The position numbers and the translations under genes are program-made. A stretch of 64,000 bases of DNA from Kiritimatiellia bacterium (GTDB taxonomy: Bacteria > Verrucomicrobiota > Kiritimatiellia > RFP12 > UBA1067): positions 23,604-87,603 of the forward strand of contig JBAYXX010000003.1 in NCBI GenBank assembly GCA_041673345.1, in the 5' to 3' direction. This document shows, piece after piece, positions 11,011 to 61,500 of the stretch; position 1 is the stretch's first letter; every line of letters starts with the position of its first letter. The notes beneath the pieces are model-generated. The model saw nothing but the letters and a program-made list of their open reading frames with translations. It searched no databases and had not been told where the DNA came from.

Positions 11011-11712
11011 TTGAGTGTGCCCTTCCGCGAGCGGGTAGTTGATGCAAAGAGGTCTTTGCCCGCCAAAGGCGGCAAACCCTCGCTCTCTGACAATCTGATT
11101 ATCCACGGCGACAATTTGGAGGCTCTGAAAGCCCTGCTGACAACCCATGCCGGTAAAATGGATTGCATCTTCATCGATCCGCCCTACAACACCGGTAACG
11201 AGGGCTGGTGCTATAATGATAACGTTCGCTCCCCATTGATGAAAGAGTGGCTTAAGAAATCCGCCAACCCCGTCGATAAAGAGGATCTTGAACGCCATGA
11301 TAAGTGGCTCTGTATGATGTGGCCGCGAACCAGAAAGATGGCGGCAACCGGCGGTTTATTCTGGTGGAGTGTGAGGATTACCAAGGAGATCAAAGAGGGC
11401 GTTCTGAAGGTTATCGGCGAGCGCACGGTGGAGGAAACCGCGCCGGGGCTGGGCGGCAGCTTCACCTTCTGCGAACTGGGTGCCCCCATGCGGATTGAGA
11501 GTCTGCTCAGCGGCAAAGATATGCCGGGTTACGAAGCGCTGGCGCGCTATGTCTTTTACACGGCCACAGGGCACTCGCTGGATAAAAACACAGCGTGGTA
11601 TCTGGACGGAAGGAGCACCGTACATTGGTGGCATCGGATTGCTGTTCATCAGCAATCCTACGGGTTGCAGGGGTGGCAGCGTAACCGTAAACAGCCACTC
11701 AGACCGCAATAG
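11011..11712 (+). pseudogene. Remnant of a type III (beta-class) restriction-modification DNA methyltransferase (Mod), truncated and frameshifted
   Basis: IFIDPPYNTGNEGW motif IV and ..HDKWLCMMWPR. The homologous reading then jumps frame (frame 3: ..GGNRRFILVECEDYQ..). Total span is about 0.7 kb versus about 1.9 kb expected. No cognate Res gene. Confidence 0.6.
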
Positions 11713-11939
11713 CTGCGGCTAAATAACGGTTGATCATCGAAAATGGCGTGAAAGGGTTATAGAGACCGTATGTGAAGTCTTCGGTGTGAGAGAGGTGGTT
11801 GTCTATACTCGGCAACGCGACAGCTTGGTCTGGTCTGTGGCAGCGAAGATGCTCTACAAGTTCGCCAGTTTGACTCAGCGCGCAGTCGCAGTGGGATTTG
11901 GATCAAGATGGAATTTCAGACAAAAGGAAGTGAAAAAAA

Positions 11940-12320
11940 GTGGCACATCAGCGATTTACAAAAAGTAGCACAGGCGTCTCGCCTGTGTTGGTTGTGGAGT
12001 TCACAGATGAGACAGTTGAAGCTGTGGTTACACCCGGCCTGGAGGGCGTTTACCAATGGATATGGCTGAATAACGGAGCTGTATCCGCTCCGGCCGCAAG
12101 GTTGACCAATATCTCATGGGCGGGCGGGGGTGCTGAGGCCGGCCTTGTAATCAGCTTCCATCCAACCGGTGCAGCTTGGGCCTCTTTTGGGTCAGACACC
12201 ATCCACAGATGTATCTATGCGAATGATCCGGAAAGTGAAGATGATGACGAAGACGGCGTGCTGGATCTATACGACACTGACGGCGTGAGCGGCGATGATG
12301 ACTTCATAAAAATCTATCCG
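11940..12320 (+). CDS. Hypothetical ORF with acidic D-rich Ca-binding-like tail; possibly a remnant
   Basis: ORF only. DDDEDGVLDLYDTDGVSGDDDF motif. 3' part overlaps an antisense transposase-like fragment. Confidence 0.2.
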
Positions 12321-12338
12321 TTTTCACCTATAAGTCTG

Positions 12339-12509
12339 CTCCATGTATTCAGCGAGCAAACGATTCTCAATACCTGTCCGAACAAGATAATCATCTATCT
12401 GCTCTATCGTTGCGCGAAACACCTGATAATCTTTTGCGCCGAAGACGGTCGGTAATACTGGACGAAACTCCGGCTGAAATGCTAATCTTGACATGTATCT
12501 TTCCCCCAT
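12339..12509 (-). pseudogene. Orphan N-terminal fragment resembling an IS1182/IS5-group transposase
   Basis: MSRLAFQPEFRPVLPTVFGAKDYQVFRATIEQIDDYLV resembles the conserved N-terminal domain of IS1182-family transposases. Only 56 codons, no DDE domain follows. Confidence 0.3.
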
Positions 12510-12811
12510 TTTGGTTGATGAGGTTATTATAAGATACTTCTTTCCGACAAGGGAGGCAAAAATGCCTCTTTTGATCGGAAATTTGCCACCTTAACACCTT
12601 AAGCATGAAACTGTTGCAAAATTGGAACAGGCTCTATGTAGTCCACGCTTTAGCGTGTCTTCGGCCATAGTTAGAATTGCAAATTTTTTGAGAGCAACAG
12701 TGACAATGTCCCGATAAAATGGTATGTTTAAGAACAAATCGTAGAACGGTTTGACCGAAGAAGTGATTGGTGTTCAAAGGGTGATTGTTTAATTCAAACA
12801 AAGGAGACATC

Positions 12812-13395
12812 ATGCAATACAGAGAGTTGGGCAATTCAAATATTGCAGAGACCATGGCTTGTTTGATATCACTGCGTGATGAGGGCAAGATTCGTGAAAT
12901 CGGCGTTTCTAACTGCACACCTGGGCAGATGGATGAGTATCTCGCCGCAGGTGTGATCGTGAGCAACCAGCCGCGTTATAGCATGCTTGACCGGAAGATC
13001 GAAAAGGAGTTGTTGCCCTACTGCCGCAAGCACGATCTGGCAGTGCTGGCCTACTCCCCGTTGGAACAAGGACTTCTGACCGGCAAGATCGGCATGGAGA
13101 CGAGCATTGATCCTGAGTCATTCCGCAACAAACTCTCTTGGTTTGCGCCAGAAAAACGCAGGCTTGTTATAAAACTACTCTCAGAGTGGGAAGTGCTGAC
13201 ATAACAGTACGACTGTACGCTTGCGCAACTGGTGATTGCTTGGACAATCGCGCAGCCCAGTGTAACGGTCGCACTTTGCGGTGCTAGAAAGAGTGAGAAC
13301 GCGCTCGAAAACGCCGGTGCTGGTGCTTTGAAGATCACACCCGACGACCTTGCACGCATGCGGCGTGAAATTGAGGCGATTGCGCCGCCTGAATA
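12812..13395 (+). pseudogene. Aldo/keto reductase pseudogene (about 100-codon in-frame internal deletion plus in-frame TAA stop)
   Basis: AKR N-terminus MQYRELGNSNI.. is joined directly to ..LRDEGKIREIGVSN.. (middle of fold). In-frame stop at 13202-13204. AKR C-terminus continues in the same frame (..QYDCTLAQLVIAWTIAQPSVTVALCGARKSENALEN..). Confidence 0.65.
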
Positions 13396-14454: not shown

Positions 14455-14459
14455 AATAA

Positions 14460-14590
14460 AACGGAACGGAACGGCTTTTAAAGCCGCGTTTCTGAATGTG
14501 CTCGGGCTGGCATCTCTCCAACAGAACCTTAAAAAGGTAGGCACAGTGAGCGTGGACGGCACTAAAATCAATGCATTAGCAGACGGTTAG
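14460..14590 (+). pseudogene. Orphan C-terminal fragment of an IS1182-like DDE transposase
   Basis: ..AAFLNVLGLASLQQNLKKVGTVSVDGTKINALADG resembles the (V/A)xxDGTKIKANAS DDE region. About 40 codons. Confidence 0.3.
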
Positions 14591-14744: not shown

Positions 14745-16199
14745 GTGATTATGAATAGGTACTGTTTATTTGTTGTGGTTGCGCTTGGGGCGCAATCGGC
14801 GTTGACTCAAAATCTCCCCAAAATTCAAAGTTTTGAAAGCACAGCCACCGACAACTGGAGCTTTAGCACCAACCCCCCCGCCTACAATGCCAACAACGAT
14901 GTGTGGGATCGTGTCAGCGATGGCGGCCAGTATTTTTCAGCTGCGCCGGATGGCTCTTACTTCTGGAAATTTTACGATATCGACGAGATACCAGGCATAC
15001 CCGAGGACAAAGTCTGCCATCTGACCTTCGAGACCGTTGATCTAGCGTCTGAGGAGGAATGCACCGTCAGCTTTGATTACTGTAACCGTGGACTGGATAA
15101 GGAAGACTACATGTCATATACCCTTGCTTTTGACAACAGCAATGGCTGGACAAGCGCCAGTGAGGTGGTGTTGCCAAAGCACGACGACAGTGTTTCCACT
15201 TGGTTCACCGTTCACACTTCCGTACCTGCGGAGGCGCAATATTGCCGTCTGCGGCTCTCAGCCAAGGCGAATTTTTCCGCGGACTGCGGTGGTTTTGACA
15301 ATATCCAATTGAAGGAGGGTGTCGTCAAGCAGCCCCAAATGACAATCGTAAGCCCGGTGAATGGTGCCTTTTTCGAAAACTCGGCCTCCAACGTAACCAT
15401 TGTTGGAACATCAACCAATCTGGTTGGGGTTATGGTGTGGAGTAACACCATGAACAGCGTCTCCGGCGCCATCGCGGCGAGCAGTGAATGGAGCATCGCA
15501 TCCCTGCCGCTAGGGGAGGGCCAGAATAAGATCTCCCTAACCGCGACCAATGCGACTGGTCTGAAAGCGGTTGTAGAGCTCTCACTCCTGCGCGGCCGCG
15601 TATTGGCTATGGATGCGCTGGGAAGAATAGTCTTTGTCGCCTTTAACAGCGCTGGCGACTCTTTTGCGTTTGTTGCACTTAAAGAACTTCCCGCAGGAGT
15701 GGTACTTCTTTTCACAGATAACACATGGAACGGAGCAGATTTTGGTTCAACCGAAGACAATCTTGTGTGGAGCAACAGTGTTGCGACAGCTGCGGGTACG
15801 GTGGTTATCTGTTACAACTGCCACGACTCCAAAATAATCAGTAACAACCTGGGCGTGGTGGTGAGTGGAAAGCTAAATCTTGCGCAGGATGGCGAGGAGA
15901 TCTATGCTTACTGCGGCAGTGTACGTCAACCAACCGCCTTTCTGGCGTCGATCAGCACTGCGAACTCAAACTTAAAAGGCACTGGACTGGTTTATGGTGA
16001 GACAGCGGTTGCGATTTCCAAGACTCCTGCAAGTCAATATTATCACGGTGCGCGTTGCACACAGAAGCAATGGTGCGACTACCTGCCGCTGATCAACAGT
16101 GCGGCCAACTGGTCGAAGACCGCCGACGCGACTGAGAGCTGGGGTGATGCGACAAGGTTTACGAGGGTGATTACGGCAACGGTGATTATGATTCAGTAG
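14745..16199 (+). CDS. Hypothetical secreted protein
   Basis: Signal peptide (MNRYCLFVVVALGAQSA). No recognisable domain. Confidence 0.5.
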   Translation: MIMNRYCLFVVVALGAQSALTQNLPKIQSFESTATDNWSFSTNPPAYNANNDVWDRVSDGGQYFSAAPDGSYFWKFYDIDEIPGIPEDKVCHLTFETVDLASEEECTVSFDYCNRGLDKEDYMSYTLAFDNSNGWTSASEVVLPKHDDSVSTWFTVHTSVPAEAQYCRLRLSAKANFSADCGGFDNIQLKEGVVKQPQMTIVSPVNGAFFENSASNVTIVGTSTNLVGVMVWSNTMNSVSGAIAASSEWSIASLPLGEGQNKISLTATNATGLKAVVELSLLRGRVLAMDALGRIVFVAFNSAGDSFAFVALKELPAGVVLLFTDNTWNGADFGSTEDNLVWSNSVATAAGTVVICYNCHDSKIISNNLGVVVSGKLNLAQDGEEIYAYCGSVRQPTAFLASISTANSNLKGTGLVYGETAVAISKTPASQYYHGARCTQKQWCDYLPLINSAANWSKTADATESWGDATRFTRVITATVIMIQ

Positions 16200-16497
16200 C
16201 GTCCCGTAAGGGGCTAGATCCGCGCACTGGGCGCGGAGAGGAGAGTGGTGAGTTTTTTGACTCGAACTTTGTCTCGCACTTAGTCTGGCTTGACAAGGTG
16301 TGAGACAAGGTGCGAGACAAGGAAGTCTTTCGCTATATGGGTGACTGCGGTGGTATGCGAATGATCAGGTTGCGCACTCTGGTCAGCCGCGCCTTTGGTT
16401 TACGATAACGGCGACGATGATGGTTGACGATTTTAAAGGACGGAATTTTTAATCGTAATCCGCTATCGCATGCCACGTCGAACGACTGGAAGGCGGG

Positions 16498-17016
16498 TCA
16501 TTCATCATCGTTAACCAAAGCCGCTCTGTGAGCGGCGCAGGTACTGGCTGCAGCGAGGGAGCCTGAGGCGAAAGCCCATGCGAGATTGTAACCTCCGCAG
16601 GGGCCGTCAACATCGACCACCTCACCGGCACAATATAGGTTTGAGATTGAGCGGCAGGCCAGTGTGCGCGGGTCCAGCTCCTGAACCGCCAGGCCTCCGC
16701 GGGTCAGCGTCGCCTTATCCCAGCCATCAGGCTGCACAATGGTCGGAACCCCCCTTCTAGCAAAGAAAGCGCGAATTTGTGATGGGGAAAAGTGATAAAT
16801 CGCTGGGGCGGCAAAGCTGGAGTTGCGCCCGAAGCTGTGAATCATCTCCCGTGGCGAGCACTCGTGAGTAAGATTACAGCTGCCATCGCCAGTTGCAAGC
16901 AGTTTGCGACCCGGCGATGCCAGCCGTTCCAGCATCAGAGCTGGTCTTGAACAAAAACAGGCCGCCGATAAATCGGCGGCCCCTGCTCCAATAATTAAAG
17001 TGTGCGGCGAACTCAT
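16498..17016 (-). pseudogene. HI0933/BaiN-like FAD flavoprotein with central ~230-aa in-frame deletion
   Basis: N-terminal FAD motif (LIIGAGAADLSAA..GRKLLATGDGSCNLTH) is fused to C-terminal signature (TLTRGGLAVQELDPRTL..LYCAGEVVDVDGPCGGYNLAWAFASG). 172 aa versus about 400 expected. Confidence 0.5.
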
Positions 17017-17486
17017 TAAAGTTGCTGTTCTTCAGCCAGCAGACTCTGCATACGGTTGACTGTGGCAACTAACTCATTGTTTTGTTTGAGCATCGTTTGA
17101 CATAGTGTGACCAGCTCCGCACAGCGGTGAAGGGTTGTGATACGCGATTTCTCCAGCTCTTTGCGGCGCAGTTTCAGACTGTCAATGCTCTCATCCAGAG
17201 TTGTGATGCGCTGCTCCGCCTTGAGTAACATGCGCCGTGTCTGAAAAAGCTGCGTGAGAACCTCGCCTGCGGAGAGATCCAGATCATCAATAATCATCTC
17301 TGACGGAATAGGCACTGTGACAGCCTGCTTACATTCAACGCAATTGATCGTCAAACCAGCGGCACGATAGTCGATGACCAGACTATGATTGCAGTGAGGG
17401 CAATCAAATACTATGTCTGTTTCATGGATCTCTTCTTCACTTGTGTTACCAGAAGCAACAATTGTATTTGTTGAAGTATCTTGCAT
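17016..17486 (-). CDS. Hypothetical zinc-ribbon plus coiled-coil protein
   Basis: CPHCNH..x13..CVECKQ zinc-ribbon. C-terminal heptad-rich region. Start/stop coupled to downstream flavoprotein remnant. Confidence 0.45.
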   Translation of the reverse strand: MQDTSTNTIVASGNTSEEEIHETDIVFDCPHCNHSLVIDYRAAGLTINCVECKQAVTVPIPSEMIIDDLDLSAGEVLTQLFQTRRMLLKAEQRITTLDESIDSLKLRRKELEKSRITTLHRCAELVTLCQTMLKQNNELVATVNRMQSLLAEEQQL

Positions 17487-18116: not shown

Positions 18117-19079
18117 ATGCCTATGATTACACCATTATTAAAAGTTAAAAATCTTGAGATCGCATTCCATCGAGAGGGAGTGAAGAGCACTCCTGTGCGA
18201 TCACTCTCTCTTACAATTGCGCCGGGTGAGCGGGTGGCGATTGTGGGCGAGAGCGGCTGCGGCAAAAGCCTGACAGCGCTGGCGCTCACAGGACTTCCCC
18301 CCACTGACAGGGCCAGCGTTTCTGGGGAAATTGTCTTTGATGGACGAAAGATACAAACTCCGGCTGATATGCGAAGGATCCGCGGCAAAGACATTGCCTA
18401 TGTTTTTCAAGACCCTGGTGGTGCGCTCAATCCAGTGATGCGGGTGCGAGATCAGATCGCTGAATGCCTGCCGCGGCTCTACAAGGAGCCGCGGCGAGCA
18501 GTAACCCTTGATTTACTAACCCGCGCTGGGCTGTCTGATCCTTCGCGTGTTGCGGCGGCTTACCCCTGTGAATTGAGCGGCGGCCAGCAGCAAAGGGTGA
18601 TGCTGGCCATGGCGCTGGCTTCGCAGCCAAAATTGCTCGTCGCGGATGAGCCCACCACGGCGCTGGATGTGACCACCCAGCAGCAGGTGCTGAATTTGAT
18701 CGACGAACTGGCCATTGCCTCTGGCATGGCAGTGCTGCTGATCACCCACAATCTGGGGTTGGTGGCCGGCCATACCGCCAGAGTGCATGTGATGTATGCC
18801 GGTGTTGTGGTGGAATCAGGCGCAGTGCGGGATGTGTTGTCAACGCCGCTGCACCCTTATGCCAGCGGACTGCTGGCAGCTGTCCCCATGCTCGACACAC
18901 CGCGTAACAGTCAGTTGCGTGATATCCCCGGCACCGTGCCAGCCCCAGACAACTGGCCGCCCGGCTGCGCCTTTGCCCCTCGCTGTAGCCGCGCCACACC
19001 GCAGTGTGCCATGGAACAGCCGCCGCAGGAACAAAGAGGCACCCGTAACTTCCGCTGCTTCAACCCTGTACAAAGTTGA
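18117..19079 (+). CDS. Oligopeptide/dipeptide ABC transporter ATP-binding protein (OppD/DppD-like)
   Basis: Walker A GESGCGKS. ABC signature LSGGQQQRV. Walker B LLVADEPTTALD. Oligopeptide-type C-terminal extension. Confidence 0.85.
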   Translation: MPMITPLLKVKNLEIAFHREGVKSTPVRSLSLTIAPGERVAIVGESGCGKSLTALALTGLPPTDRASVSGEIVFDGRKIQTPADMRRIRGKDIAYVFQDPGGALNPVMRVRDQIAECLPRLYKEPRRAVTLDLLTRAGLSDPSRVAAAYPCELSGGQQQRVMLAMALASQPKLLVADEPTTALDVTTQQQVLNLIDELAIASGMAVLLITHNLGLVAGHTARVHVMYAGVVVESGAVRDVLSTPLHPYASGLLAAVPMLDTPRNSQLRDIPGTVPAPDNWPPGCAFAPRCSRATPQCAMEQPPQEQRGTRNFRCFNPVQS

Positions 19080-19897
19080 ACATGTCAAAAAAAAACAAAA
19101 AACCTATTTTAGAATTGAACGGCCTTTCAGTTGTTTACAAAAGGGTTGGCCGCCCAGCAATGCGCGCTGTTCACAAAGTTTCCCTCTCTCTGCTGGCGGG
19201 GGGTTCGCTTGGGATTGTTGGCGAAAGCGGCTGTGGCAAGACCTCGCTGGCCCGTGTTATTATGGGGCTGCACCTCCCGCATGAAGGGGCACTGCTCTTT
19301 GAGGGCAAGAGCATTGCGGCGTTTACTCATGCGGAGCGTGTTCGGTACAGGCGCAAGGTACAGATGATCTTTCAGGATGCAACGGGATCCCTCAATCCGC
19401 GCATGACTGTCCGGCAGAGCATTGAGGAGGTGCTCAGGGTGCACCGGATCTGCGTTCCCAAGGAGATCGAAAGCCGCGTGGACTCCCTGTTGGAGCGGGT
19501 GGCATTGTCAAAAAAGATATTGGATTCATATCCCCGTGAAATGAGCGGCGGGCAGTGTCAGCGCGTGAGTATCGCACGCTGCCTGGCCTTGGGTCCAGAG
19601 GTGATTATCGCGGATGAGCCTGTGAGCGCGCTGGATGTTTCGGTACAGGCGCGTATACTCAATCTTCTGCGTAGGTTGCAGCAGGAACTGAACTTGGCCC
19701 TGATTCTCATATCGCATGATCTCGCGGTGGTCAAACATGTCTGCGATGACGCAGTTGTTATGTACGCCGGCGAGTTTGTCGAGGCTGGCCGCACGCTTGA
19801 GGTGCTTGAAAACCCTCAGCATGCCTACACAAAGTCTCTGCTGGCAGCGGTCCCGGATGTCAAGCGGGAGCTGCAAAAACAGGTGCTGAGTATTTGA
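19076..19897 (+). CDS. Oligopeptide/dipeptide ABC transporter ATP-binding protein (OppF/DppF-like)
   Basis: GESGCGKTS, MSGGQCQRV, IIADEPVSALD. 4-bp overlap with upstream ATPase gene. Confidence 0.85.
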   Translation: MNMSKKNKKPILELNGLSVVYKRVGRPAMRAVHKVSLSLLAGGSLGIVGESGCGKTSLARVIMGLHLPHEGALLFEGKSIAAFTHAERVRYRRKVQMIFQDATGSLNPRMTVRQSIEEVLRVHRICVPKEIESRVDSLLERVALSKKILDSYPREMSGGQCQRVSIARCLALGPEVIIADEPVSALDVSVQARILNLLRRLQQELNLALILISHDLAVVKHVCDDAVVMYAGEFVEAGRTLEVLENPQHAYTKSLLAAVPDVKRELQKQVLSI

Positions 19898-19924
19898 AAA
19901 CAGCCAGCGTGTCGTTTCTTCTGA

Positions 19925-19967
19925 TTAGTCGCTTAGGCGACTAGAAAAAACAATTAATTGTTTTTTG
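19925..19967. terminator. Module E of the repeat family: perfect hairpin TAGTCGC-TTAG-GCGACTA followed by A6-CAATTAATTG-T6; probable bidirectional rho-independent terminator
   Basis: Hairpin followed by T-run on both strands. Sits immediately 3' of the oppF-like gene. Copies at 38005-38070 (inverted) and 46109-46155, also at gene 3' ends. Confidence 0.45.
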
Positions 19968-20001
19968 CAAAAAGTTGTCTATCGAACGTTTATAGGCGTT
20001 T

Positions 20002-20197
20002 AGTGTAGTAGTCGCTCTATGAGCGACACAGAGGTCAGTGTAGTAGTCGCTCTATGAGCGACACAGAGGTCAGTGTAGTAGTCGCTCTATGAGCGACACA
20101 GAGGTCAGTGTAGTAGTCGCTCTATGAGCGACACAGAGGTTGGTGTAGTAGTCGCTCTATGAGCGACACATGCCGCTCATAGAGCGGCTACTACACT
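20002..20197. repeat. Tandem array: 5 x 35-bp unit (AGTGTAGTAGTCGCTCTATGAGCGACACAGAGGTC), each with a perfect 7-bp-stem hairpin, ending in an inverted copy
   Basis: Period 35 bp at 20002, 20037, 20072, 20107, 20142. No unique spacers, so not CRISPR. Same 25-bp module (module D) at 30016-30200, 37939-37994 and 46191-46236. Confidence 0.9.
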
Positions 20198-20700
20198 CGA
20201 TGCTGGCCGACGATGACGGTGGACGATTGGGATCATGCGGGGGCTCGTCCACCAGCATCGTCGCCGTTATCTAAACCGGAGGCGCGGCTGACCAGAGTGC
20301 GTAATCTGATCATTCGCAAACCACCTTAGTCACCCGTATAGCGAAAGATTTCCTTATCTCACACCTTGTCTCACACCTTGTCTCACACCTTGTCAAGTCA
20401 GACTAAGTGCGAGACAAAATTCGCGACAAAGCTGGCCTATTGCCCAGGGTCGGGGTCGGGGTCGGGGTCGGTATCGGTATCGAAGGGTGCATAGAATCGA
20501 CCCCGATGCCGATTCCGACCCCGACTCCGAGTTGCGGGGCACCACATATTGACTGCGGAACCGACCTCTTGTAGGTCCGGTTTTCAACCGGACATGTCCG
20601 ATTGGAAATCGGACCTACGTCTGTCGTAAAGCACTATAGCCGCGGGCCGTGGCCGCGGTTGGCGCGTATACACGCTCCGAATAATGAATGCGGTCATGAC
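20198..20700. repeat. Composite repeat cluster (modules B/C, G, (GGGGTC)n/(GGTATC)n palindrome, A, H)
   Basis: 20350-20420 is an inverted copy of 16258-16325. 20440-20535 is a long imperfect palindrome of hexamer repeats. 20571-20619 is a module A double hairpin. 20628-20670 is a CCGCGG-rich palindrome also at 17905-17945 and 43960-44000. Confidence 0.8.
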
Positions 20701-20739
20701 AGACGCACTCTCCGACAAAGTTTACGACAAAGAGAAATA

Positions 20740-21255
20740 ACACATGATTTTACGATTTGCCATGCAGAGGTGGAGGAGATCTACAATGCCGCCGACCCAG
20801 TTGACACAGTTGTGCGCAATGCGCATGCGAAGTACGAGGCTTGTCGCCAGCTCCATCCCGGGGCGGCCATTATCACAGCCGATACTCTGGTCTGGTTTGA
20901 GGGGCGGCTGATTGGCAAACCCAGGGATCTCCTGGAGGCAGCGGAGTTTCTGCGCGCGTTTTCAGGAAACACACAGATTGTTTTCAGCGGAGTGGTATTG
21001 GGGATGCCCGGAGAGCGATCACCTGTAATCAGGGTTGAAGCTTCATCAGTTGAGTTTAAGGAGCTGACCGAAGAGGTGATTCAGGGCTATCTGCGGCGAA
21101 CCATGCCACTGGACCGCGCCGGTGCTTATGACATCGATGAAAACAGCGAACTACTGATCGCAGGGCATTGTGGCTCATACACCAATATCATGGGGCTGCC
21201 GGAGGAGATTCTCCGCGACTGGCTGAGAGCGCAACGGCTGATTGCCTTTTCTTAG
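20740..21255 (+). pseudogene. maf: Maf-like nucleoside triphosphate pyrophosphatase, 5'-truncated (N-terminal ~40 aa incl. substrate-binding S-P-R-R motif missing; repeat element occupies the 5' end)
   Basis: ITADTLVWFEGRLIGKP, FSGVVLG, LDRAGAYDIDENSELLIAGHCGSYTNIMGLP match Maf. The open frame upstream of about 20740 is translated repeat sequence with no Met. Confidence 0.5.
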
Positions 21256-35567: not shown

Positions 35568-35740
35568 GCCTGATAAGATACGCTATGTTGGCGGATTATT
35601 CAAGGGTTTTGGTGTGAAAATTCTCAAATTTAACTAGCTGTTCCATATAATTCTACTATACGCATCTGCGGATATCTGATATGTTTATCTTAATTCCTGA
35701 ATTAGTTCACGAGTCAGCTTTAATCTTGGAGGATAAGGTG

Positions 35741-51063: not shown

Positions 51064-51069
51064 TCCGCC

Positions 51070-51874: not shown

Positions 51875-52165
51875 TCACCGATACGGGCATCTGTTTCGAA
51901 CGCCCGCGAAATGCTGGTTGAGGATTTTTGTGACCTCCGCGTTTTTGAACGACTCGCGGGCCATGACATGACACCAATGGAAGGTGGAGTAGTCGATGGA
52001 GAGGAAAATAGGCTTATTCGTTTTGCGTGCTTCGGTAAACGCTTCATCGCCCCAGGGATACCAGTCAACCGGATTGTGTACATGTTGCAGCAGGTAAGGG
52101 CTCTTCTCGTGTATCAAACGGTTTGTGTGCATACTCTCTTTCCCCGTGGTCGTCGACTTGTCCAT
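51875..52165 (-). pseudogene. Duplicated 5' fragment (about 85 codons) of the DUF255 thioredoxin-domain gene found intact at 61850->64000
   Basis: [48 protein letters not shown].. is about 85% nucleotide identity to 63700-63990. Diverges into junk after about 85 codons. Confidence 0.6.
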
Positions 52166-52436
52166 CGAACGCGGTTGATTAGTTATCAGCGGCCATACGA
52201 ATAATCAGGGTGCTGGAACTCCATCGCGCGGCTGACGGTGCCGCCGGCCATTACTCTAACCAATAATATGCACCAATTCACCTAGAGTGGCCCCTGGATG
52301 TCGTTAGATAGCGCAACCCGCCATAACCAATATTCACCTCTGCGATACTTTGGAAAAACCGCGCCGCTTTGACTGTCGCTGGGTCGCCCGACCCCGGGAA
52401 TAAGATGTAGCCCCCGATCACTTCTTTGCGATAAGG

Positions 52437-52784
52437 TTAGCTGGCAGGCGGGTTCTCCTTGTTGCTTCGGTAATAAATCGCATCGCGATATCGGTGCATC
52501 TGGTTGATTGCATCGTTAGGCGGTGAATCGACACCTTCTCTATCCGCCTCAAGCCGATATTTAGCATCAAAAAGATAGGTGAGTTTAAACGTATTGTCAC
52601 CCCCGACAGGCTTGGTCAACCTTAACACGATATCAGGCTTCTGTTCGCCGCCGGTGGGCGCAACGATTTCGCCGTCACACTCGTCCAGTACGCCGGTTGT
52701 CGCATTATAAAAAAGCTCGGCCAGTTCTGAATTGTAATATGAAATGCGACAACACATTGGACAAAAAAATGTCCCATGCAACAA
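52437..52784 (-). pseudogene. Orphan fragment of a PD-(D/E)xK restriction-endonuclease-like protein (McrC-like C-terminal piece)
   Basis: ..PDIVLRLTKP...LFDAKYRLEADREG...AINQMHRYRDAI resembles the nuclease core (D..D/EAK) of McrC-type proteins. 115 aa only. Confidence 0.3.
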
Positions 52785-52874
52785 TACCCCTTAACAAAAT
52801 CCTTCAAAAAATTGAAGAAAGGAAAAGCCACGTGGAACAGCTGAATCATAGCCGTAACCAATTTTTATCTGAAA

Positions 52875-52990
52875 CCACAAAGGACCTAGCGCAGCATAGC
52901 CGCCTGTCTTGCAACACACAGGCAGGCAACTAATTTTTTATCTCTCACAGAGGCACAGAGTTCTCAGAGTTGTTTTGCCCGCGAATCTCC
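52875..52990. repeat. Partial copy of the element inserted in copA (includes the 23-bp TIR TTATCTCTCACAGAGGCACAGAG)
   Basis: CCTAGCGCAGCATAGCCGC...TTATCTCTCACAGAGGCACAGAGTTCTCAGAGTTGTTT matches 57141-57235. Confidence 0.75.
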
Positions 52991-54127: not shown

Positions 54128-54200
54128 CAGGTGCCAGGCTGGCAGGTGCCAACCGGGGTCGTGCCAACCGGGGTCGTGCCAACCGGGGTCATCCATTATA
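54128..54200. repeat. Tandem 15-bp repeat (GTGCCAACCGGGGTC) x3 plus degenerate copies
   Basis: Direct reading of 54128-54200. Confidence 0.85.
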
Positions 54201-54246
54201 TTAGTAATTAATGATTGACGCGAGATTTAAAGCTGTGCTCATGTGG

Positions 54247-54480
54247 AACTTGGCAAGAAAACTGCGAGTTGAATAGCCTGGCGCGATTTATCATATTACC
54301 CATCGTGGCAATGGGAAGATGCAGATATTTTCCGATGACCATGACCGCGATAGGTTTCTCCTGCGGCTGGCTGAGAGCCTTGATACAGGTAATGCGGAGC
54401 TTAAAATCCAACTTGAAGAGATAACGGAAAAGCTTGAATTGCTTCGAGAGGAAAACTGCAATGCGTTTAATTACTAATCT
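54247..54480 (+). pseudogene. Remnant of a REP-associated tyrosine transposase (RAYT / IS200-like TnpA) with in-frame TAG replacing the conserved Tyr
   Basis: MWNLARKLRVE*PGAIYHITHRGNGKMQIFSDDHDRDRFLLRLAESL matches the RAYT N-terminus (..RVEYPGAIYHV.NRGN....F.DD.DR..FL..L). Unrelated sequence follows. Confidence 0.45.
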
Positions 54481-54528: not shown

Positions 54529-54729
54529 ATGAAGTCCATCAGCATTGACACTTGTGTGGTTTTGCGTCTTCTTGTTGGCACGCTTGAGAAACAATCTGAA
54601 CAGGCCGTTGGTTTTTTACAGGAATCCTTTTCCAAGGGCGTGAGGATATGTGTATCAGATTTGGTTGTTGCTGAGAGTTATCACGCACTTATCTATCATT
54701 ACAATGTTCCCAAGCTTAAAGCAATATAA
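54529..54729 (+). pseudogene. Truncated PIN-domain (VapC-like) toxin fragment
   Basis: SIDTCVVLRLLVG...VSDLVVAESYHAL corresponds to the first two conserved acidic positions of the PIN fold. ORF ends after 66 aa. No antitoxin gene evident. Confidence 0.35.
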
Positions 54730-55059: not shown

Positions 55060-57728
55060 TTAGAACTGCCAGCGCAGACCGCCGCCACAACCAAAATCGG
55101 AGTGCCATTGGCCGATCAGGGAAAAGTGTTTGGTAAGCAAATAGCCGGTGCCCGCGCGGATCTCCCAATGTTCTTTCGTATCATATTCGGCCTCAGAAAA
55201 CACCGCGAGTCGCGGCGTGAGTTCAAGGTGCTTACCGACGGCGAATTGGAACTCACCGGCTGTGTCCACCCACACGCGTGATGTGATATTGAGCGGCAGT
55301 AGATAGCGCAGGCCGAAGATACCCTCGTGCTTGTCGAAGTGATCGTCCGCTCCCTCAAGGTCAAGCCCTGCGAAGAGAGTGGTAAAACGGTTCAGGTAAT
55401 AATCGTAGGTGGGCGCGACCTCCCACTCTACGTCATCCACGTGCTGCCAGCCAGCCTGCCATTCGGTAGAGAAGATGTGCCGCGAGTTGGCGTAAACCAA
55501 CACTCCCTGCGACATCTGCGAAAGCGCATCCACCCGACCATACAGGTAGAACGGGTCATCGTAGAGTAGTGGACGCACGGCGGCGGTGGCTGGGTCGGGG
55601 ACGAACCCCTGATAATGCACCACCGCCGCCATGCCGCTCATCATGTGATAGAGCAGGTGGCAGTGGAAAAACCAGTCGCCGAACTCATCCGCCGCAAACT
55701 CAATCACAGTAGTCGTCATGGGGGCGACATCCACGGTGTGTTTGAGCGGTGAATGATCTCCCTGGGCGTTGAGCACCCGGAAGAAATGGCCGTGAAGATG
55801 CATCGGGTGATGCATCATGGTGCGGTTGATCATGATGAACCGCACCACCTCGCCGCGTTTGATTTCAATGTCGTCACGCTCGGACAACGGCTTGTTGTTC
55901 AGAAACCAGAGGTAACGCTCCATGTCGCCATCGAGGGTGAGCCGGATTTTTCGGATCGGTTTTGAAGAATCGAATGCGGTGGATTGCAGGGCGCGTAGCT
56001 TGTCGTAAGGCGGCCCTGGACGTTCCTCGCTCATGTTGTCAGCGGCCAGCGGGGTTTGAGAACTCACATCCTCAGCGAGTAGTCCGAGCCAGGTGCTATT
56101 GGGTGCAGTGGTTTTCCCTTCGGAAACCATACCCGTACCCATCGGCGCCTTTTCGTGCATCATACCGCTCATGTCGTGGCCCGCGTGTTCCATCGCGGGT
56201 GCGGCGTCCATCCCTGAATAGTTCGTTTTAGCGGCATTCGGAGCCATCTCGCCGTGATCCATTCCCTTCATTCCTTCCATCTCCTGCATGCCGTCCATAC
56301 TCTCCATTCCCTCCATACTGTTCATGCCCGGTTGATCGAACTTGCCGGCACGTACAGCGTTGCCCGACATACCCATCGAACCGCCTGGGGTCAGTGCGAA
56401 CACGCGTTTGAGCGAGAGGCCGCCCATGCTGTCGTAAAGATTGGGGGACGGAATGTCCGGCGCGGCGTGCCGTGTTCCGTCACCAATCCACAGCGACGCA
56501 TGCCCTGATCCATCATGAGCTGTTGCGCGAAACTCGTAGCTGCCTTCATCCGGCATTGTAACGATCACGTCATAGGTCTCAGCCACGCCCATCAGCAACC
56601 GCTCTTCGTTGAAGGGATGCACCAGTTGTCCGTCCGCCGAGATCACCTGCATCGGGCCGCCGGCAAACTGCAAATAGAAGAACGTGGAGGCCGAACCATC
56701 GATGACCCGGAGCCGGATCTTTTCGCCCGGCTTAGCGGTGAGGGCGTGGTGCGGTGCGCCGTTGAGCAGAAAGCGATCATAGTACACATCGGACAGATCC
56801 ATGGGTGGCATGCGTTGAAGCTCCCTTGAGAAATACGCGCCCAACAGTCCCAGCCGCGCTGCACCCAGCACGCTTTGACCGCTGCCTTTCTTAATTGAAT
56901 ACCACTCGCTGCCACGTTTGAGGGTGTGGAGCACCGAGTTCGGGTCGTCATCTGTCCAATCGGATAGCACCACGACGTGGTCACGCAGCTGGTCAAACAC
57001 GCCCTTATCCTTCGGCGCGATGACCAATGCTCCGAACAGTCCGCGCTGTTCCTGGAGCATGGTGTGGCTGTGATACCAGTAGGTACCGGATTGACGCAGA
57101 TCAAACTCATAGGTGAATGTCGTACCAGGTGCAATGGGTGGATATGTCCTAGCGCAGCATAGCCGCAACCAATTCTTTATCTCTCACAGAGGCACAGAGT
57201 TCTCTGAGTTGTTTCAGAGTTTCCACCAGCAAAGACTCAAAGGCGTAAAGTTCGGGCTCGACGTTCCCAGTTTTCCACATTTTTCACCTCTAAGATTTTT
57301 CACCTTAAAATATTCTCTCAGTGCTGCGAAAAGTTCAGCTACTCTCTGTGTTCTCTGTGCCTCTGTGAGAGATAATAAACGTACAAAAAAAACAAGAATA
57401 TGAATGATAGTAGTACAAAGGGCACGCTGTCCATGTTGTTGGGCAGCAGAATTCCATGCCAGTGAATCGAGGTCTCCACGTCCACCTGGTTATGGACGCG
57501 GATTGTTGCATGGTCGCCGTCGGTGAAACGCAGGGTCGGCCCCGGTAGTTGACCATTGAGGGTCATGGCCTGGACAGGATGGCCGGTGATGTTTATCTCC
57601 TGCCGGGCAATGGTGAGGTCATATTCCACGGTTGCCGCCGATAAGATCGCCCACGGCACGAACAGCGCCAAGGTGCCCAACAGCACCGCCATGGGATTCA
57701 CAGACCATGTTTTGGTTGGTCGCATCAT
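55060..57728 (-). pseudogene. copA: Multicopper oxidase (CopA/PcoA-like) fused to a CopB/PcoB-like outer-membrane domain, disrupted by a ~290-bp repeat/MITE insertion
   Basis: All four MCO copper motifs (HWHG at 57440s, WYHSH, HPMHLHGH, HCHLLYHMMSGM). Met/His-rich MxxM repeats. About 180-aa C-terminal extension ending ..RWQF. Coding sequence is interrupted between HWHGILLPNNMD (about 57429) and YPPIAPG (about 57135). Insert length is not a multiple of 3. Confidence 0.6.
57177..57375. mobile_element. ~199-bp MITE with perfect 23-bp terminal inverted repeats (TTATCTCTCACAGAGGCACAGAG) inserted in copA
   Basis: Left TIR 57177-57199. Right TIR 57353-57375 (reverse complement). No transposase ORF. 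Left-end copy at about 52935-52975. Confidence 0.7.
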
Positions 57729-57773
57729 TACAGGTTCTCCTTTGGCCCTTTTTTAACCTTTATTTCTTTTCGA

Positions 57774-58448
57774 TTACGGTGAGAAGATCGCGTTTGTGCT
57801 CCCTGATTGCAGCATCGGCTGCCGGTTTTCAAAACCGGGGCGGCCGCTGCGGTAGATGATACCGATCGGAATGGAGTCGCCCCATTGGAACGACAACGCC
57901 AGCGCCTTCATACGGTCATACGGGTCATGCTCCGCTGTCACCGGCTGAACGCGCTTTTTGTACCACTTGTAGGTGTTGACCTTGTTGAAGGTTACGCATG
58001 GTTGCAGGATGTCCACGAGGACGAATCCCTCAGTGTGCCGCAAAGCTTCCAGCAGGGTCGCTTTGAGATGCTCCGGATCGCCGGCAAAGGTTCGCGCCAC
58101 AAGGGAACAGCCCTCAACAATCGCCAGTGCCAGCGGATTGAACGGCATCGACATCACGCCATGCGTTTGAATCTTGGTCACAATAACCTCAAGCTCGTGA
58201 TTGGCGCATTTGATGCCGGTGGCAACCGGCAGTGCGCGGCCGTGCAATCCATTAAAGAGATTGCAGGGCGGTGTCACATAGTGGGGGAGCTTGGCTGCCT
58301 GGCCGATACCGGAGACCAGTACGGTTTTGTCCGGATTCAGACCGCTTTCCGCCAGTGCGGCGTCGAATGCTTTGAGAATCGGAAAGTTGCCGCATCCCGG
58401 ACACCAGGCTGGAGTCGTATCGGCTTTTCGTAAATCCAGTGGTTTCAT
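57774..58448 (-). CDS. korB: 2-oxoacid:ferredoxin oxidoreductase beta subunit homologue with about 45-aa in-frame deletion removing the TPP-binding GDG...NN.IYGLTKGQ segment (probably non-functional)
   Basis: WCPGCGNF, GIGQAAKLP, LHGRALPVATGIK and PFNPLALA..LVARTF align to KorB. LEVIVT is joined directly to KIQTHGVMSMPFNP. 224 aa versus about 270-340 aa expected. Confidence 0.6.
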   Translation of the reverse strand: MKPLDLRKADTTPAWCPGCGNFPILKAFDAALAESGLNPDKTVLVSGIGQAAKLPHYVTPPCNLFNGLHGRALPVATGIKCANHELEVIVTKIQTHGVMSMPFNPLALAIVEGCSLVARTFAGDPEHLKATLLEALRHTEGFVLVDILQPCVTFNKVNTYKWYKKRVQPVTAEHDPYDRMKALALSFQWGDSIPIGIIYRSGRPGFENRQPMLQSGSTNAIFSP

Positions 58449-60151
58449 TATAATCCAATCCTTTCCGCAATCTCTGTTCCGGTGAATGGCAGTCCATCAT
58501 AGCGCAGGATGTTTTCAGCTTGTGTCAGCACTCCGGTTTCCCGAAGCAATGCGGCAAACTGGGCGGTCTGATTGCCTTCAACGCAGTAAATCCGGTGTCG
58601 TCCTTTCAAGTGGGGCTTCCACGCTGAGGGCGACAGCGGCCACACCTGAGCCGCATGCAGCATAGCTGCCGACCGACCGGCATTGTTCAAGGCATCGACC
58701 CCTTCACGCATCGGTCCGTAGCTGGAACCCCAGCAGATGATAAGAATCTCCGCACCGTCAGGCCCATGGTAGGCTGGAGGCAGGGCTTCGGCCTGCATCT
58801 CCGGCAGCTTTGCCATGCGTTTGTCCTGTTGTGAAATCCGCGCTTGAAAATCCTCGGACAAATGTCCAGCGGCATCATGTTCGTCCGAATCCACGACCAC
58901 CCGCGCCTTGCCACCTGGAATGGCCCGGGGAGAGACACCGCCCTCAGCAGGAATTCGATAGCGCTGGTAGTCCGCGTCGGCATCCTCTGCAATGCAGCGG
59001 TCAATCGGCGCATCTTTTTCAGGGAACGGCTGCACTAGCTTCTCCATATCCTGCAGATACTGATCTGTGAGCAGCAACGTGGGTGTCTGATAGCGATGAG
59101 CCGTCTGCAGGGCCGTGCGCATCAATGTGTAGCATTGCTCAACTGTTCCGGGAGTATAGATCGCCCGCGGGAATTCGCCGTGACCTGCCCGCAATGCAAA
59201 TTGCAAATCCTGCTGCCCTGTCCGTGTCGGCATGCCGGTTGCCGGTCCGGGACGCTGGGCTATAACAACAACCGCCGGTAGTTCCATCATTCCTGCCAAC
59301 GACAGCCCCTCGGCCATGAGTGCGAAACCGCCGCCGCTGGTGGTTGTCAGCGCGGGCACACCGGCATAGGTGGCGCCGCAGACCATATTTATGGCGGCAA
59401 TCTCGTCTTCGGCCTGTTCAACTAGAATGCCATGGAGGTCGGCCTTTTCCGCCAGCCAGGCAAGAGTCGCCGTGCTGGGGTTCATCGGATAGGCTGCCAC
59501 AAACTTCACCCCGGCCGTGGCCGCTCCCTGTCCCAGTGCCGCCGCCCCGCTCCAGAGTTGGCCGGCGGTAACGTGGTCGGAGAGTGCCGGTGCTTGCAGA
59601 CGCGCCCACGCTCCGAACTCGCCAATGCGGGTGTGTCCGGCCCGGGCGCATTTCATATTGACATCGGCCAGCTCCTTGTCTTTCGGAGAGAATAATTTTT
59701 CAAGATAGAGGCACAGGCTGTCAACCGGGTATCCCAGCAACGCGAAGACCGCGCCGGCCAGCACACTGTTTGCCGCCAGGGTTGAACCGGTTAACTCACG
59801 GGCCAGCTTTGTGGCATTCAGCGCTACGATCTCGGTGGTCTCTGTCGCTTCGCCATTGTGCAGATGAGTTCCGCCGGGTGCTATGCTTGGGGATAGAATT
59901 TCACCGGCAACATCCGAAAACGAAATCAGGAGGTCAGCCTGCTCCTTACCTGCAAAACACTCCTGGTCGCTTACTCGTAGGTCATACCAGTTCAACCCGC
60001 CGCGGATGCGTGACATGTAACTTCGAGTGGACAATAAATGTACACCCGTGTCTTTCATTCCACCAAGAAGAAAACTTCCCGCTGTCTCGACTCCCTGGCC
60101 GGCCTCGCCAACAATCCGTATAAGTATATCCGCCATAGTCATTCCTTCCAA
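58448..60151 (-). CDS. korA: 2-oxoacid:ferredoxin oxidoreductase alpha subunit
   Basis: ILIRIVGEAGQGVETAGSFLL.. is the KorA N-terminus, followed by pyruvate-flavodoxin oxidoreductase domains I-III. True start likely MADIL (about 60136). Confidence 0.85.
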   Translation of the reverse strand: MEGMTMADILIRIVGEAGQGVETAGSFLLGGMKDTGVHLLSTRSYMSRIRGGLNWYDLRVSDQECFAGKEQADLLISFSDVAGEILSPSIAPGGTHLHNGEATETTEIVALNATKLARELTGSTLAANSVLAGAVFALLGYPVDSLCLYLEKLFSPKDKELADVNMKCARAGHTRIGEFGAWARLQAPALSDHVTAGQLWSGAAALGQGAATAGVKFVAAYPMNPSTATLAWLAEKADLHGILVEQAEDEIAAINMVCGATYAGVPALTTTSGGGFALMAEGLSLAGMMELPAVVVIAQRPGPATGMPTRTGQQDLQFALRAGHGEFPRAIYTPGTVEQCYTLMRTALQTAHRYQTPTLLLTDQYLQDMEKLVQPFPEKDAPIDRCIAEDADADYQRYRIPAEGGVSPRAIPGGKARVVVDSDEHDAAGHLSEDFQARISQQDKRMAKLPEMQAEALPPAYHGPDGAEILIICWGSSYGPMREGVDALNNAGRSAAMLHAAQVWPLSPSAWKPHLKGRHRIYCVEGNQTAQFAALLRETGVLTQAENILRYDGLPFTGTEIAERIGL

Positions 60152-60316
60152 ACTTTGCAGACAGCTTTGTCCGCTGCTCGCTATTCATCGCCAGCTTAGT
60201 GCCTTGCAAGAGTTGTCTGTTTGATCTTTACGGGTTAAGCTGAGCCTAAAAATTGATCGCACCATTTTGTAACGCTTTCGATACAGGACAGTTTGTTATG
60301 GCGGTCTTGATTTCAT

Positions 60317-61048
60317 TCAAGCATTTGATAAAGATGACGTTAGAAAATCAGACAACTGCAAAAGTTGGGTCAAATTAGGCTTATTAACAACACGGTTACA
60401 AACAACAGACCACCCGTCGGACGATATATGAAACACAGTTGTTATCGGCCCTTTTTTTTGATTAAGAGGGAACTGGTTTATAAACTTAAGTAGAGTTTTT
60501 TGCACCTCTGGAGATATTGTTATACCTTTGTTATGATCTTTCGCTGTTATACTAAACTGATCTGTAAAATCCTTTATGAGCCCCTCTGTTATTTCCATGC
60601 CGGTGTCAGATTGCATAGATGCTTGCATCGTCAAGAAGTGCTCTGCTATTTTAGGAAGTTTTTTTCTGATTTTTATCTCTCTATTAATTTCAAGATTAAT
60701 ATTTTCGAAAAGCATAGTGTAATATTTATGCGTCGTTGATCGATTGGCTCCTGCATAGCCTCTTGTTTTTCTATGCACGTCACACAAATATCCGCTTCCT
60801 CCATTTTTATTCTGTTTACCTATTATTTTTATGATCTCATCACTTGAGTTAGACTGATTCTGAGATAATTTATATTTATTCGCTTTTCTCAAAACATCTT
60901 CTTGTGTGATTTTCCGGTACCCACAATGTTCTAATCCTTCAAATAACTGTCGTACTCTCAGTTTGTCCAAGATATAAAACTTAAACAGAATACCACCACC
61001 ACCTGCAATAAGCGTAGCAAATAAAAATAAACCTATCATTTCAGTCAT
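60317..61048 (-). CDS. Low-GC orphan gene: hypothetical protein with single N-terminal TM helix and about 215-aa soluble domain of unknown function
   Basis: GC is markedly lower than flanking genes. AAA/AAT-rich codon usage. N-terminal MTEMIGLFLFATLIAGGGGILFKFYIL. No recognisable motif. Confidence 0.5.
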   Translation of the reverse strand: MTEMIGLFLFATLIAGGGGILFKFYILDKLRVRQLFEGLEHCGYRKITQEDVLRKANKYKLSQNQSNSSDEIIKIIGKQNKNGGSGYLCDVHRKTRGYAGANRSTTHKYYTMLFENINLEINREIKIRKKLPKIAEHFLTMQASMQSDTGMEITEGLIKDFTDQFSITAKDHNKGITISPEVQKTLLKFINQFPLNQKKGPITTVFHISSDGWSVVCNRVVNKPNLTQLLQLSDFLTSSLSNA

Positions 61049-61089
61049 TTCTTTAGGTCACCGGCTTCAGCGCCATCAAGCATTTTAAT

Positions 61090-61500
61090 CAATCTTGCTT
61101 CGAGTGCTTCGCATACAAGCACCCACTGTCTTTCAACCAATGCCCAGTCGTGTGGTTATTCAATGGTGCGTTCGGCCAGTTCGGCAATCCATTGCATTTG
61201 TTCGCAGAGGGTCTGGCGCCAGCTCTGGCTAGTTATCAGAGGGGCGGTTGCGTACAACCTCGTCGGCGCGTGTAGCCTTCATCCAGGCGCGCTGCGAGAG
61301 CAACATGGCGAATACAACAGCCCCAAGTAGCCGATTACGCCCTGATGCGCACCCTGCACGTCTTTATTATGGAGCACCTCTTTCAGTGCCTCATACTCAC
61401 TGGTGATAAGCTCACTGATGTCCTCCTTGCTTGCGTGCGCAGCCTCGTTGAGCAACGAAAGGGCCTCGTGTATTTTCTGTGTCTCTTGTCCATCTTGTTT
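61090..61500 (-). pseudogene. Frameshifted remnant of an unidentified gene (possibly DinB/YfiT-like)
   Basis: Manual translation: ..HEALSLLNEAAHASKEDISELITSEYEALKEVLHNKDVQGAHQGVIGYLGLL continues in another frame as ..AVVFAMLLSQRAWMKATRADEVVRNRPSDN. Not in ORF track. Confidence 0.25.

Follow-up and report, generated by a model that had tools for sequence, protein, structure and literature searches.

Does a dense series of damaged genes, lying among intact housekeeping genes, point to the reductive evolution of a host-restricted bacterium, or may it also arise through ordinary gene decay in a free-living one? This question is raised by a stretch of 64,000 nucleotides, referred to here as the window (positions 23,604 to 87,603 of the forward strand of contig JBAYXX010000003.1, assembly GCA_041673345.1), from a Kiritimatiellia bacterium, in which a previous reading of the letters alone (the sequence-only reading) had listed fourteen loci as non-functional, including those of the 2-oxoacid:ferredoxin oxidoreductase beta subunit (korB), an aldo-keto reductase (AKR), an HI0933-like flavoprotein, a multicopper oxidase, and the nucleotide pyrophosphatase Maf. 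When compared with full-length homologues, 11 of the 14 lesions could be verified, while one (a vapC/PIN fragment) is weak and two (scraps of IS1182 transposases) found no verification. The explanation favored here, with a probability of roughly 0.6, is that the window derives from a free-living uncultured Kiritimatiellia population with a locally high load of genuine, mostly recent inactivating lesions, to which several ordinary routes of mutation have contributed. The phenomenon is thus a known one, that is, ordinary gene decay, in a new organism, and its local density is unusually high.

The degraded loci are interspersed with intact genes over 50 kb and form no single island, and, as had been claimed, they are found beside housekeeping genes, given that rpmB, purDE, serA, mnmA, hflX, and prmA lie between them. 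In Pfam scans of the long open reading frames (ORFs), approximately 44 genes of the window appear to be intact, including rpmB, oppDF, htrA, hflX, lptE, serA, prmA, purE, purD, and mnmA, together with thymidine phosphorylase, queH, korA, and a subtilase of 1873 amino acids. The window varies little in its GC content, which is 51% and mostly about 0.51 along its length (0.43-0.585). The closest relatives found are other metagenome-assembled genomes (MAGs) of the Planctomycetes-Verrucomicrobia-Chlamydiae (PVC) group, such as a 'Lentisphaerae' MAG (locus L002), with which KorA shares 75% identity over residues 4-566, and the Kiritimatiellae MAG GCA_028686345.1 (locus L166), to which Maf is 83% identical.

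Deletions and insertions in metabolic genes

The principal lesions involve the following genes, together with a miniature inverted-repeat transposable element (MITE) and repetitive extragenic palindromic (REP) sequences, some of which are arranged as REPINs:

57774-58448, minus strand: korB, with a 153-bp in-frame deletion (junction 58178/58179).
58448-60151, minus strand: korA, the apparently intact partner subunit (Pfam POR and POR_N).
12812-13395, plus strand: AKR pseudogene, with an in-frame deletion of ~120 codons (junction near 12844/12845) and a TAA at 13202-13204.
16498-17016, minus strand: HI0933-like flavoprotein of 172 aa, with an in-frame deletion of ~228 aa (junction near 16723/16722).
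55060-57147, minus strand: C-terminal 695 codons of the multicopper oxidase (Pfam Cu-oxidase, Cu-oxidase_2, and Cu-oxidase_3, the last at 71-118/119).
57148-57413, no strand: MITE-like insert of 266 bp, non-coding, with 23-nt internal inverted repeats, which splits the oxidase.
57414-57728, minus strand: N-terminal 105 codons of the multicopper oxidase (Pfam Cu-oxidase_3, 2-70/119).
52885-52975, no strand: truncated MITE-like copy, 95 bp upstream of a nuclease fragment.
19926-20667, no strand: REP/REPIN cluster of ~700 bp that abuts the truncated 5' end of Maf, with five 35-bp tandem units at 20002-20176.
20746-21255, plus strand: Maf that lacks ~22 codons at its 5' end, with the start codon and the SPRR loop, aligning from residue 24 of Bacillus subtilis Maf.

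In comparison with the closest orthologue (L002), the korB deletion removes exactly 51 amino acids, including the GDG…NN (GDGD…NN) motif that binds thiamine pyrophosphate (TPP), and what remains is 86.5% identical (186/215) to that orthologue. A gap of ~51 amino acids is present in every alignment that crosses the site, among some 50 homologues found downstream of korA (loci L002-L058), which bears out the claim that the TPP-binding segment is missing. The Pfam TPP_enzyme_C domain is matched at positions 17-51/151 only, and the 224-aa product falls below all the NCBIfam cut-offs (210.6 vs. 261.9 for TIGR02177, where the match is divided in two and skips profile positions ~81-126). Lacking both the motif and one contiguous match above the cut-off, this product would not be expected to work as an enzyme.

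The DNA of the window reads GAG GTT ATT GTG and then, across the junction, ACC AAG, while the orthologue reads …ATC GTC ATT AGC… to the left of the site and …GGA TTT GTG ACC AAG to its right. Given this comparison, the deletion can be placed between ATTGTG and TTTGTG, which bound it with the 5-6 nt of microhomology that are typical of such events. No second lesion was seen in korB.

In the case of the AKR, the reading frame runs from MQYRELGNSNI directly into AETMACLISLRDEGKIREIGVSN…, and residues 14-181 correspond to residues 136-303 of the 312 of B. subtilis IolS, so that ~120 N-terminal residues of the barrel are replaced by 13 amino acids, slightly more than the loss of about 100 codons that had been proposed together with the TAA. 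The homology continues beyond this in-frame TAA, and the Pfam AKR profile is covered at 116-215/291 only. The missing N-terminal part presumably holds the catalytic Asp-Tyr-Lys(-His) residues, and the product would not form a complete (alpha/beta)8 barrel.

The HI0933-like flavoprotein had been described as a fusion of its terminal signatures with some 230 amino acids missing, and the alignment with solved homologues agrees closely with this, since residues 5-98 match reference residues 5-101, residues 100-156 match 330-386, and residues 102-329 of the reference have no counterpart. When 1.84 billion protein representatives were searched exhaustively, 147 of the 149 best relatives have 341-603 aa and are matched in the same kind of two stretches. 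One other short protein (P0010, 194 aa) exists, and, as its break points differ from those of the window, the short form does not represent a conserved architecture. The motif that binds flavin adenine dinucleotide (FAD) reads GAGAAD instead of GAGAAG in the window, and the same 172-aa product, with three residues different and GAGAAG retained, is found in ERZ27247361, the assembly of another sample. The protein lacks the usual arrangement of ~400 aa, with a middle domain between two Rossmann halves.

A metagenome synteny scan, anchored on the 484-aa protein encoded at 14745-16199, found no relatives and so no intact orthologue of the AKR or HI0933 locus. The relocation of the missing segments within the window was ruled out by a search of the window, in which neither the korB nor the HI0933 segment is found elsewhere. 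Given that their catalytic cores are missing (the TPP site in korB, the N-terminal active-site part in the AKR, and the middle of the flavoprotein), all three are probably dead enzymes. That three of four deletions are in frame was considered as a special signal and discarded, since chance alone would give this with a probability of ~0.11 and remnants that stay in frame are more readily noticed.

The gene that had been reported as a copA split by a MITE is a multicopper oxidase, and the split itself is confirmed. Its C-terminal piece is 76-85% identical to intact orthologues, free of gaps, and ~20 orthologues, with 60-85% identity, pass without interruption from residue 105 of the N-terminal piece to residue 8 of the C-terminal piece. 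As the orthologues are contiguous at this point, the 266 bp of 57148-57413 are an insertion. No further defect was seen in the oxidase beyond this insert, and a metagenome scan anchored on the gene found no conserved neighborhood among its orthologues.

The element is represented by one full and one truncated copy, and by a third beyond the end of the window (138 nt, 100% identical, in L082 1-515, ~400-900 bp past the end), and it contains no long ORF. Short, non-coding, and present in several copies, it has the general features expected of a MITE, although its perfect 23-nt inverted repeats lie about 30 nt inside the ends and are not strictly terminal, while no target-site duplication was recognizable at the oxidase junction and no transposase that could be its parent was found. 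Past the end of the window, the third copy abuts an ORF with only the dimerization domain of Pyr_redox (Pfam 12-109/110), whose homology reaches the element, and which probably represents a second gene that the element has split or truncated.

The replacement of the 5' end of Maf by a repeat, which had also been proposed, is supported by the fact that homology to the 83%-identical orthologue, in both DNA and protein, starts only at FTICHA, at about nt 20750, and that a repeat copy extends to 20667. The orthologues begin MNHIPLILGSVSPRRSKILQSITSNFTICHA…, and their MNHIPLILGSVSPRR is absent from the Maf of the window, which scores below the TIGR00172 cut-off (102.4 vs. 117.15 bits), has no NCBI protein, and is recorded solely as a JGI gene call of 161 aa. 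Without the N-terminal strand and the SPRR loop, and with this score, the product is predicted to be non-functional.

The repeats belong to two families. One forms REPIN-like inverted doublets, GTAGGTCCGGTTTCCAACCGGAC-AT-GTCCGATTGGAAATCGGACCTAC, found at 10840-10887, 20571-20618, 37748-37797, 43902-43949, 46400-46425, and 746 (10 REPIN halves in the window), and the second, GTAGTAGTCGCTCTATGAGCGAC, is present in 12 copies, including the five tandem units. Composite modules of 350-700 bp occupy the spacers at ~16.3, 20, 30, 37.8, 43.9, and 46.2 kb, and the overall density is approximately twice that of the relative L166, in which both families occur in the same oppF-Maf spacer and Maf is intact. 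These GTAG-headed imperfect palindromes, intergenic and in part arranged as inverted doublets, can be classified on sequence as REP/REPIN elements. No intact cognate REP-associated tyrosine transposase (RAYT) flanked by REPs was found in the window, which has only a remnant of 50 aa with a stop codon and no flanking REPs.

Several routes may be distinguished. Microhomology-mediated (slippage-type) deletions have removed internal segments, as seen in korB and as may have occurred in the HI0933-like and AKR genes, and the 266-bp element has transposed into coding sequence in the oxidase, and likely also in the gene beyond the end of the window. The growth of the REP/REPIN cluster may have overwritten the 5' end of Maf. 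Nonsense mutations, the loss of a start codon, and truncations could account for the AKR TAA and for three of the remnants described below (the TAG of a Y1 transposase, the stop of a PD-(D/E)XK nuclease, and the start of a DUF883 gene), and partial duplication for that of DUF255. The in-frame deletions keep the ORFs open, so that gene callers accept them.

Age, selection, and extent of the decay

The degraded loci represent 9 of ~53 (17%) when only the firmly verified ones are counted, and ~24% with all the candidates (9-13, against ~44 intact genes), while the usual range is 1-5%. The lesions appear to be of mixed ages, given that the AKR (deletion and stop) and the HI0933-like gene (deletion and motif change), which look older, carry extra lesions, while korB and the oxidase carry single ones. 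These single lesions, together with MITE copies that are 100% identical, indicate that several of the lesions are recent.

Nei-Gojobori ratios of nonsynonymous to synonymous substitution (dN/dS) were obtained for a small sample of six genes against relatives at a dS of 0.5-0.7, with values of 0.05 for the CDP-OH transferase, 0.10 for oppF, 0.11 for the helix-turn-helix (HTH) regulator, 0.11 for the remainder of Maf, 0.14 for the remainder of korB, and 0.15 for korA. As the remainders of the broken genes (0.11-0.14) behave like their intact neighbors (0.05-0.15), the lesions of korB and Maf are recent. For almost the whole of the divergence time, the broken genes were subject to purifying selection, and the intact ones show no long-term relaxation.

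A variant of the window's PurD, with 2 of 423 amino acids different, is found in IMG metagenome 3300014206, which was obtained from the composite leachate cistern of a landfill in southern Ontario (PMC9723747). Given this near-identical strain, the habitat looks free-living and anaerobic.

The host restriction or long-term relaxed selection that had been suggested to explain the lesions is not borne out, given this strain, the GC content of 51%, and the dN/dS range, and giant-cell biology likewise finds no support here. Of the features expected in host-restricted reductive evolution, dN/dS is not elevated in the six pairs and the habitat, judged from the leachate strain, does not look host-associated, while a gene-disrupting spread of mobile elements is indeed seen (the oxidase MITE, the Pyr_redox copy, and the Maf REP cluster).

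A possible, if on balance unlikely, alternative is that the window is representative of a genome-wide erosion, in which early reductive evolution, or ineffective selection following a bottleneck or niche shift, is accompanied by a burst of MITEs and REPINs. This would agree with the spread of the lesions over 50 kb between housekeeping genes rather than in one island, with the metabolic nature of the genes struck (korB, AKR, flavoprotein, oxidase, and Maf), with the identical MITE copies, one in the oxidase and one abutting a truncated gene, and with a REP density about twice that of L166, whose 20 kb contain no fragments and have an ORF density of 0.90. On the other hand, the dN/dS of the intact genes is ordinary, there is no AT drift at a GC content of 51%, the habitat looks free-living, and the evidence comes from one window that was chosen after the fact. 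A more specific version, in which a landfill-type free-living lineage is at the start of such an erosion, with the MITE/REPIN burst and the microhomology deletions hitting core metabolism without any host and partly out of sight of annotation, is unlikely.

It is highly improbable that selection retains the shortened ORFs as short variants with a function of their own, for instance as pseudoenzymes or regulators. The korB and HI0933 frames are open and NCBI names both products as normal proteins, the remainder of korB has a low dN/dS, and another short HI0933-like protein does exist, but a recent lesion predicts a low dN/dS equally well, and the junctions of that other protein are different. 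In addition, the korB deletion occurs in none of the homologues that span the site and takes the TPP-binding motif with it, the AKR also has a stop codon, and the G-to-D change in the FAD motif of the HI0933-like protein is not found in the variant strain.

There is very little chance that the pattern is an artefact of assembly or binning, that is, of collapsed or chimeric junctions or of strains mixed in one contig, as the mention of a chimeric or misassembled source had implied. The source is a metagenome assembly, tandem copy numbers vary between assemblies, and a contig from another sample shows mosaic divergence. However, four contigs of a second assembly, ERZ27250894, tile the window (1-12577, 12444-~30.4 kb, 30340-57288, and 57148-64000+) with 99.9-100% identity, including every lesion junction, and all their breaks fall at repeats. 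As this second assembly differs only in the copy numbers of tandem repeats (the 35-bp REP array at 20002-20176 and a 15-bp repeat at ~54131-54190), misassembly or chimerism is very unlikely. The HI0933 junction also recurs in ERZ27247361, the flanking repeats, of 5-6 nt at korB, are too short to collapse a graph with k=141, the composition is uniform, and the missing segments do not reappear elsewhere in the window.

Two variant loci show an uneven distribution of differences. Against positions 16450-17176 of the window, L084 has 28 differences within 16973-17171, followed by 523 bp with none, and, against 34297-36912, five of the six differences in the PurD contig (L085) fall within the last 20 nt of purD. 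Such mosaic contigs suggest either that co-occurring strains recombine or that short contigs are chimeric.

Several points weigh against the preferred reading of a local load of recent lesions in a free-living population. It is based on 64 kb only, picked because they looked damaged, and the crude ORF density of 0.82, which ranks 8 among 54 control loci with a median of 0.87, is low without being extreme. Approximately half of the remnants are mobile or defense DNA (Mod, Y1 transposase, PIN, and PD-(D/E)XK), which decays everywhere. The lesions are judged from assemblies, and the loss of function from missing motifs. The second assembly may share reads with the source MAG, and the contig from the other sample, which shows no difference across the HI0933 junction and departs from the window upstream only, has limited independence, so that the replication is limited but real. 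Even so, a recent loss of dispensable functions in the presence of active small mobile repeats fits the pattern, and a long-standing genome reduction does not.

Smaller remnants and duplicates

The remaining candidates are short pieces, which are located as follows:

11011-11712, plus strand: remnant of a type III Mod methyltransferase (Pfam N6_N4_Mtase, 2-53/221).
12327-12590, minus strand: claimed IS1182-like scrap, with no Pfam or NCBIfam match.
14456-14587, plus strand: claimed IS1182-like scrap (…VSVDGTKINA…), with NCBIfam IS1182 at 112-149/488 (E = 0.2) and no Pfam match.
51878-52204, minus strand: degenerate 5' duplicate of a DUF255/thioredoxin-domain gene (parent gene at 61850-64000).
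52281-52790, minus strand: C-terminal fragment of a PD-(D/E)XK_7 nuclease, with an in-frame stop and the N-terminal part gone (PF04411, 55-163/164 across the stop).
54241-54393, plus strand: RAYT-like remnant (N-terminal ~50 aa) of a Y1 transposase of the IS200 type, interrupted in frame by a TAG at 54274-54276.
54529-54729, plus strand: PIN/VapC-like ORF of 66 aa, N-terminal half (Pfam PIN, 3-47/120, E = 0.0034, under the gathering score).
61294-61506, minus strand: remnant of a DUF883 (ElaB/YqjD-type) gene, ~50 conserved N-terminal codons (homologue P0276).

The Mod locus had been read as a frameshifted gene, of which the remnant stands and the frameshift does not. Only ~80 aa of the N-terminal region with the DPPY motif (about nt 11050-11283) are recognizable, with the best solved structures matched at 93-141 of the 644 residues of EcoP15I Mod and at 82-159 of the 618 of Mod 6k0w, and the frameshift was dropped, as a composite of the putative C-terminal pieces matched no Mod structure.

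The duplicated 5' fragment of the DUF255 gene is real, given that the direct repeat 51900-52163/63735-63998 has 86% DNA identity with the 5' end of the intact gene. The duplicate matches Pfam Thioredox_DsbH at 1-76/163, and its CHWC has become FHWC (CxxC to FxxC). The fragment that had been called McrC-like is also real, under another name, as a C-terminal piece of PD-(D/E)XK_7 (PF04411) read through a stop.

The supposed RAYT, with a TAG in place of a conserved Tyr, is a genuine remnant, in which MWNLARKLRVE*PGAIYHITHRGNG… aligns with MARPLRIEYPGAWYHVMNRG… of two full-length ORFs at L151 (tblastn, E = 7e-7). The TAG lies at the Tyr of IEYPGA in the homologue, as had been proposed, but this Tyr is not the catalytic one. 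The full-length ORFs consist of Y1_Tnp and Bac_DnaA_C (a DnaA-type HTH), and the HUH region of the transposase is absent from the window. As for the vapC fragment, the match to PIN is partial and below threshold, which makes this a weak candidate.

The remnant that had been noted at 61 kb belongs to a gene of the DUF883 type and shares 67% identity with a protein of 111 aa (P0276, PF19029) from a Kiritimatiellae MAG. Its start site reads TAA AAT AAA AAA, with no start codon, and the C-terminal glycine-zipper half was undetectable.

The two IS1182 transposase scraps could not be verified. One has the faint match listed above, and a search of 5.8 billion proteins gave no homologue for the other, for which the label was dropped. 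The overlapping ends of two contigs of the second assembly, at 12444-12577, point to repeated sequence there. Pfam and NCBIfam missed the Y1 remnant, the two scraps, the downstream pieces of Mod, and the DUF883 remnant, two of which were recovered in other ways, the Y1 remnant through tblastn to L151 and that of DUF883 through a search for homologues.

Known systems and neighboring features

Pseudogene-rich genomes are known from Mycobacterium leprae, Sodalis glossinidius, and Shigella, which are recently host-restricted. The window resembles them in having inactivated genes beside intact housekeeping genes, lesions of mixed types and ages, and disruption by mobile elements, but it differs in the absence of any sign of a host, given the leachate strain, in a dN/dS that is not raised, in the lack of AT bias, and in disrupting elements that are of the MITE and REP types rather than full insertion sequences, and the comparison covers 64 kb of the genome. 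A literature search on pseudogene-rich Kiritimatiellia found nothing relevant.

Repeat-laden genomes of reduced coding density are also found in the free-living Trichodesmium and Microcystis, which share with the window the abundance of short interspersed repeats in spacers and the presence of gene fragments, although the coding density of the window, by the crude ORF measure of 0.82 and over 64 kb only, is just mildly reduced.

REP/REPIN elements and their RAYT transposases are known from Pseudomonas and E. coli. The likeness here lies in the two GTAG-headed palindrome families, one of them in inverted doublets, in the spacer clusters, and in the Y1 transposase remnant, while the differences are that this only Y1 gene of the window is a dead remnant of 50 aa without flanking REPs and that its homologue has an additional DnaA-type HTH. 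Inactivation by MITE insertion, in turn, is known from the Correia elements of Neisseria and the RUP of the pneumococcus, which are likewise short, non-coding, inverted-repeat elements with several near-identical copies, inserted in coding sequence, but the inverted repeats of the window's element are internal (~17-35 nt from the ends) and no target-site duplication is recognizable.

The source contig has 95,613 bp, its NCBI proteins include MFA7171984, MFA7172002, MFA7172008, and MFA7172026, and the annotation treats KorB (224 aa) and the flavoprotein (172 aa) as normal proteins, so that pipelines based on the presence of domains would count a dead oxidoreductase. Pseudogenes formed by in-frame deletion are thus a blind spot for the metabolic reconstruction of MAGs. 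If the density observed here holds genome-wide, the lineage would provide a case of early decay through small mobile repeats outside a host, which would separate the effects of a bottleneck from those of symbiosis; without that extent, it is ordinary gene decay.

Some neighboring features may be added. In L166, the oppF-Maf pair adjoins the CDP-alcohol phosphatidyltransferase and the HTH regulator (8560-12456), while the equivalent pairs of the window (8918-10442 and 19076-21255) are ~9 kb apart and relatively inverted, with a REPIN at both boundaries. This arrangement may have come about by a repeat-associated rearrangement or because the segment at 10.4-18 kb was inserted. The oppD/oppF-type pair of ABC ATPases (18117-19897) has no permease or binding-protein genes nearby, and the oppF-like gene of L166 is also without visible partners.

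On the minus strand at 21270-21753, an ORF with a signal-peptide-like start (21451-21753) is followed by a segment in another frame (21270-21539) with a dockerin-like GDLNFDDTIDAADY motif, and this stretch, which has no Pfam match, may be a frameshifted gene for a secreted protein. The 96-aa ORF at 10447-10737 (plus strand), which ends just before a REPIN, matches the Prok-JAB profile at 3-43/114 only (E = 0.005) and reads GSA where we would expect the metal-binding HSH, and it may be one more truncated gene.

Finally, no tRNA genes were found in the 64-kb window, and the sole Rfam match is a cobalamin riboswitch (RF00174, 61 bits, 8725-8844, minus strand), which is located directly upstream of a TonB-dependent receptor gene (6631-8628, minus strand), in a BtuB-like layout.

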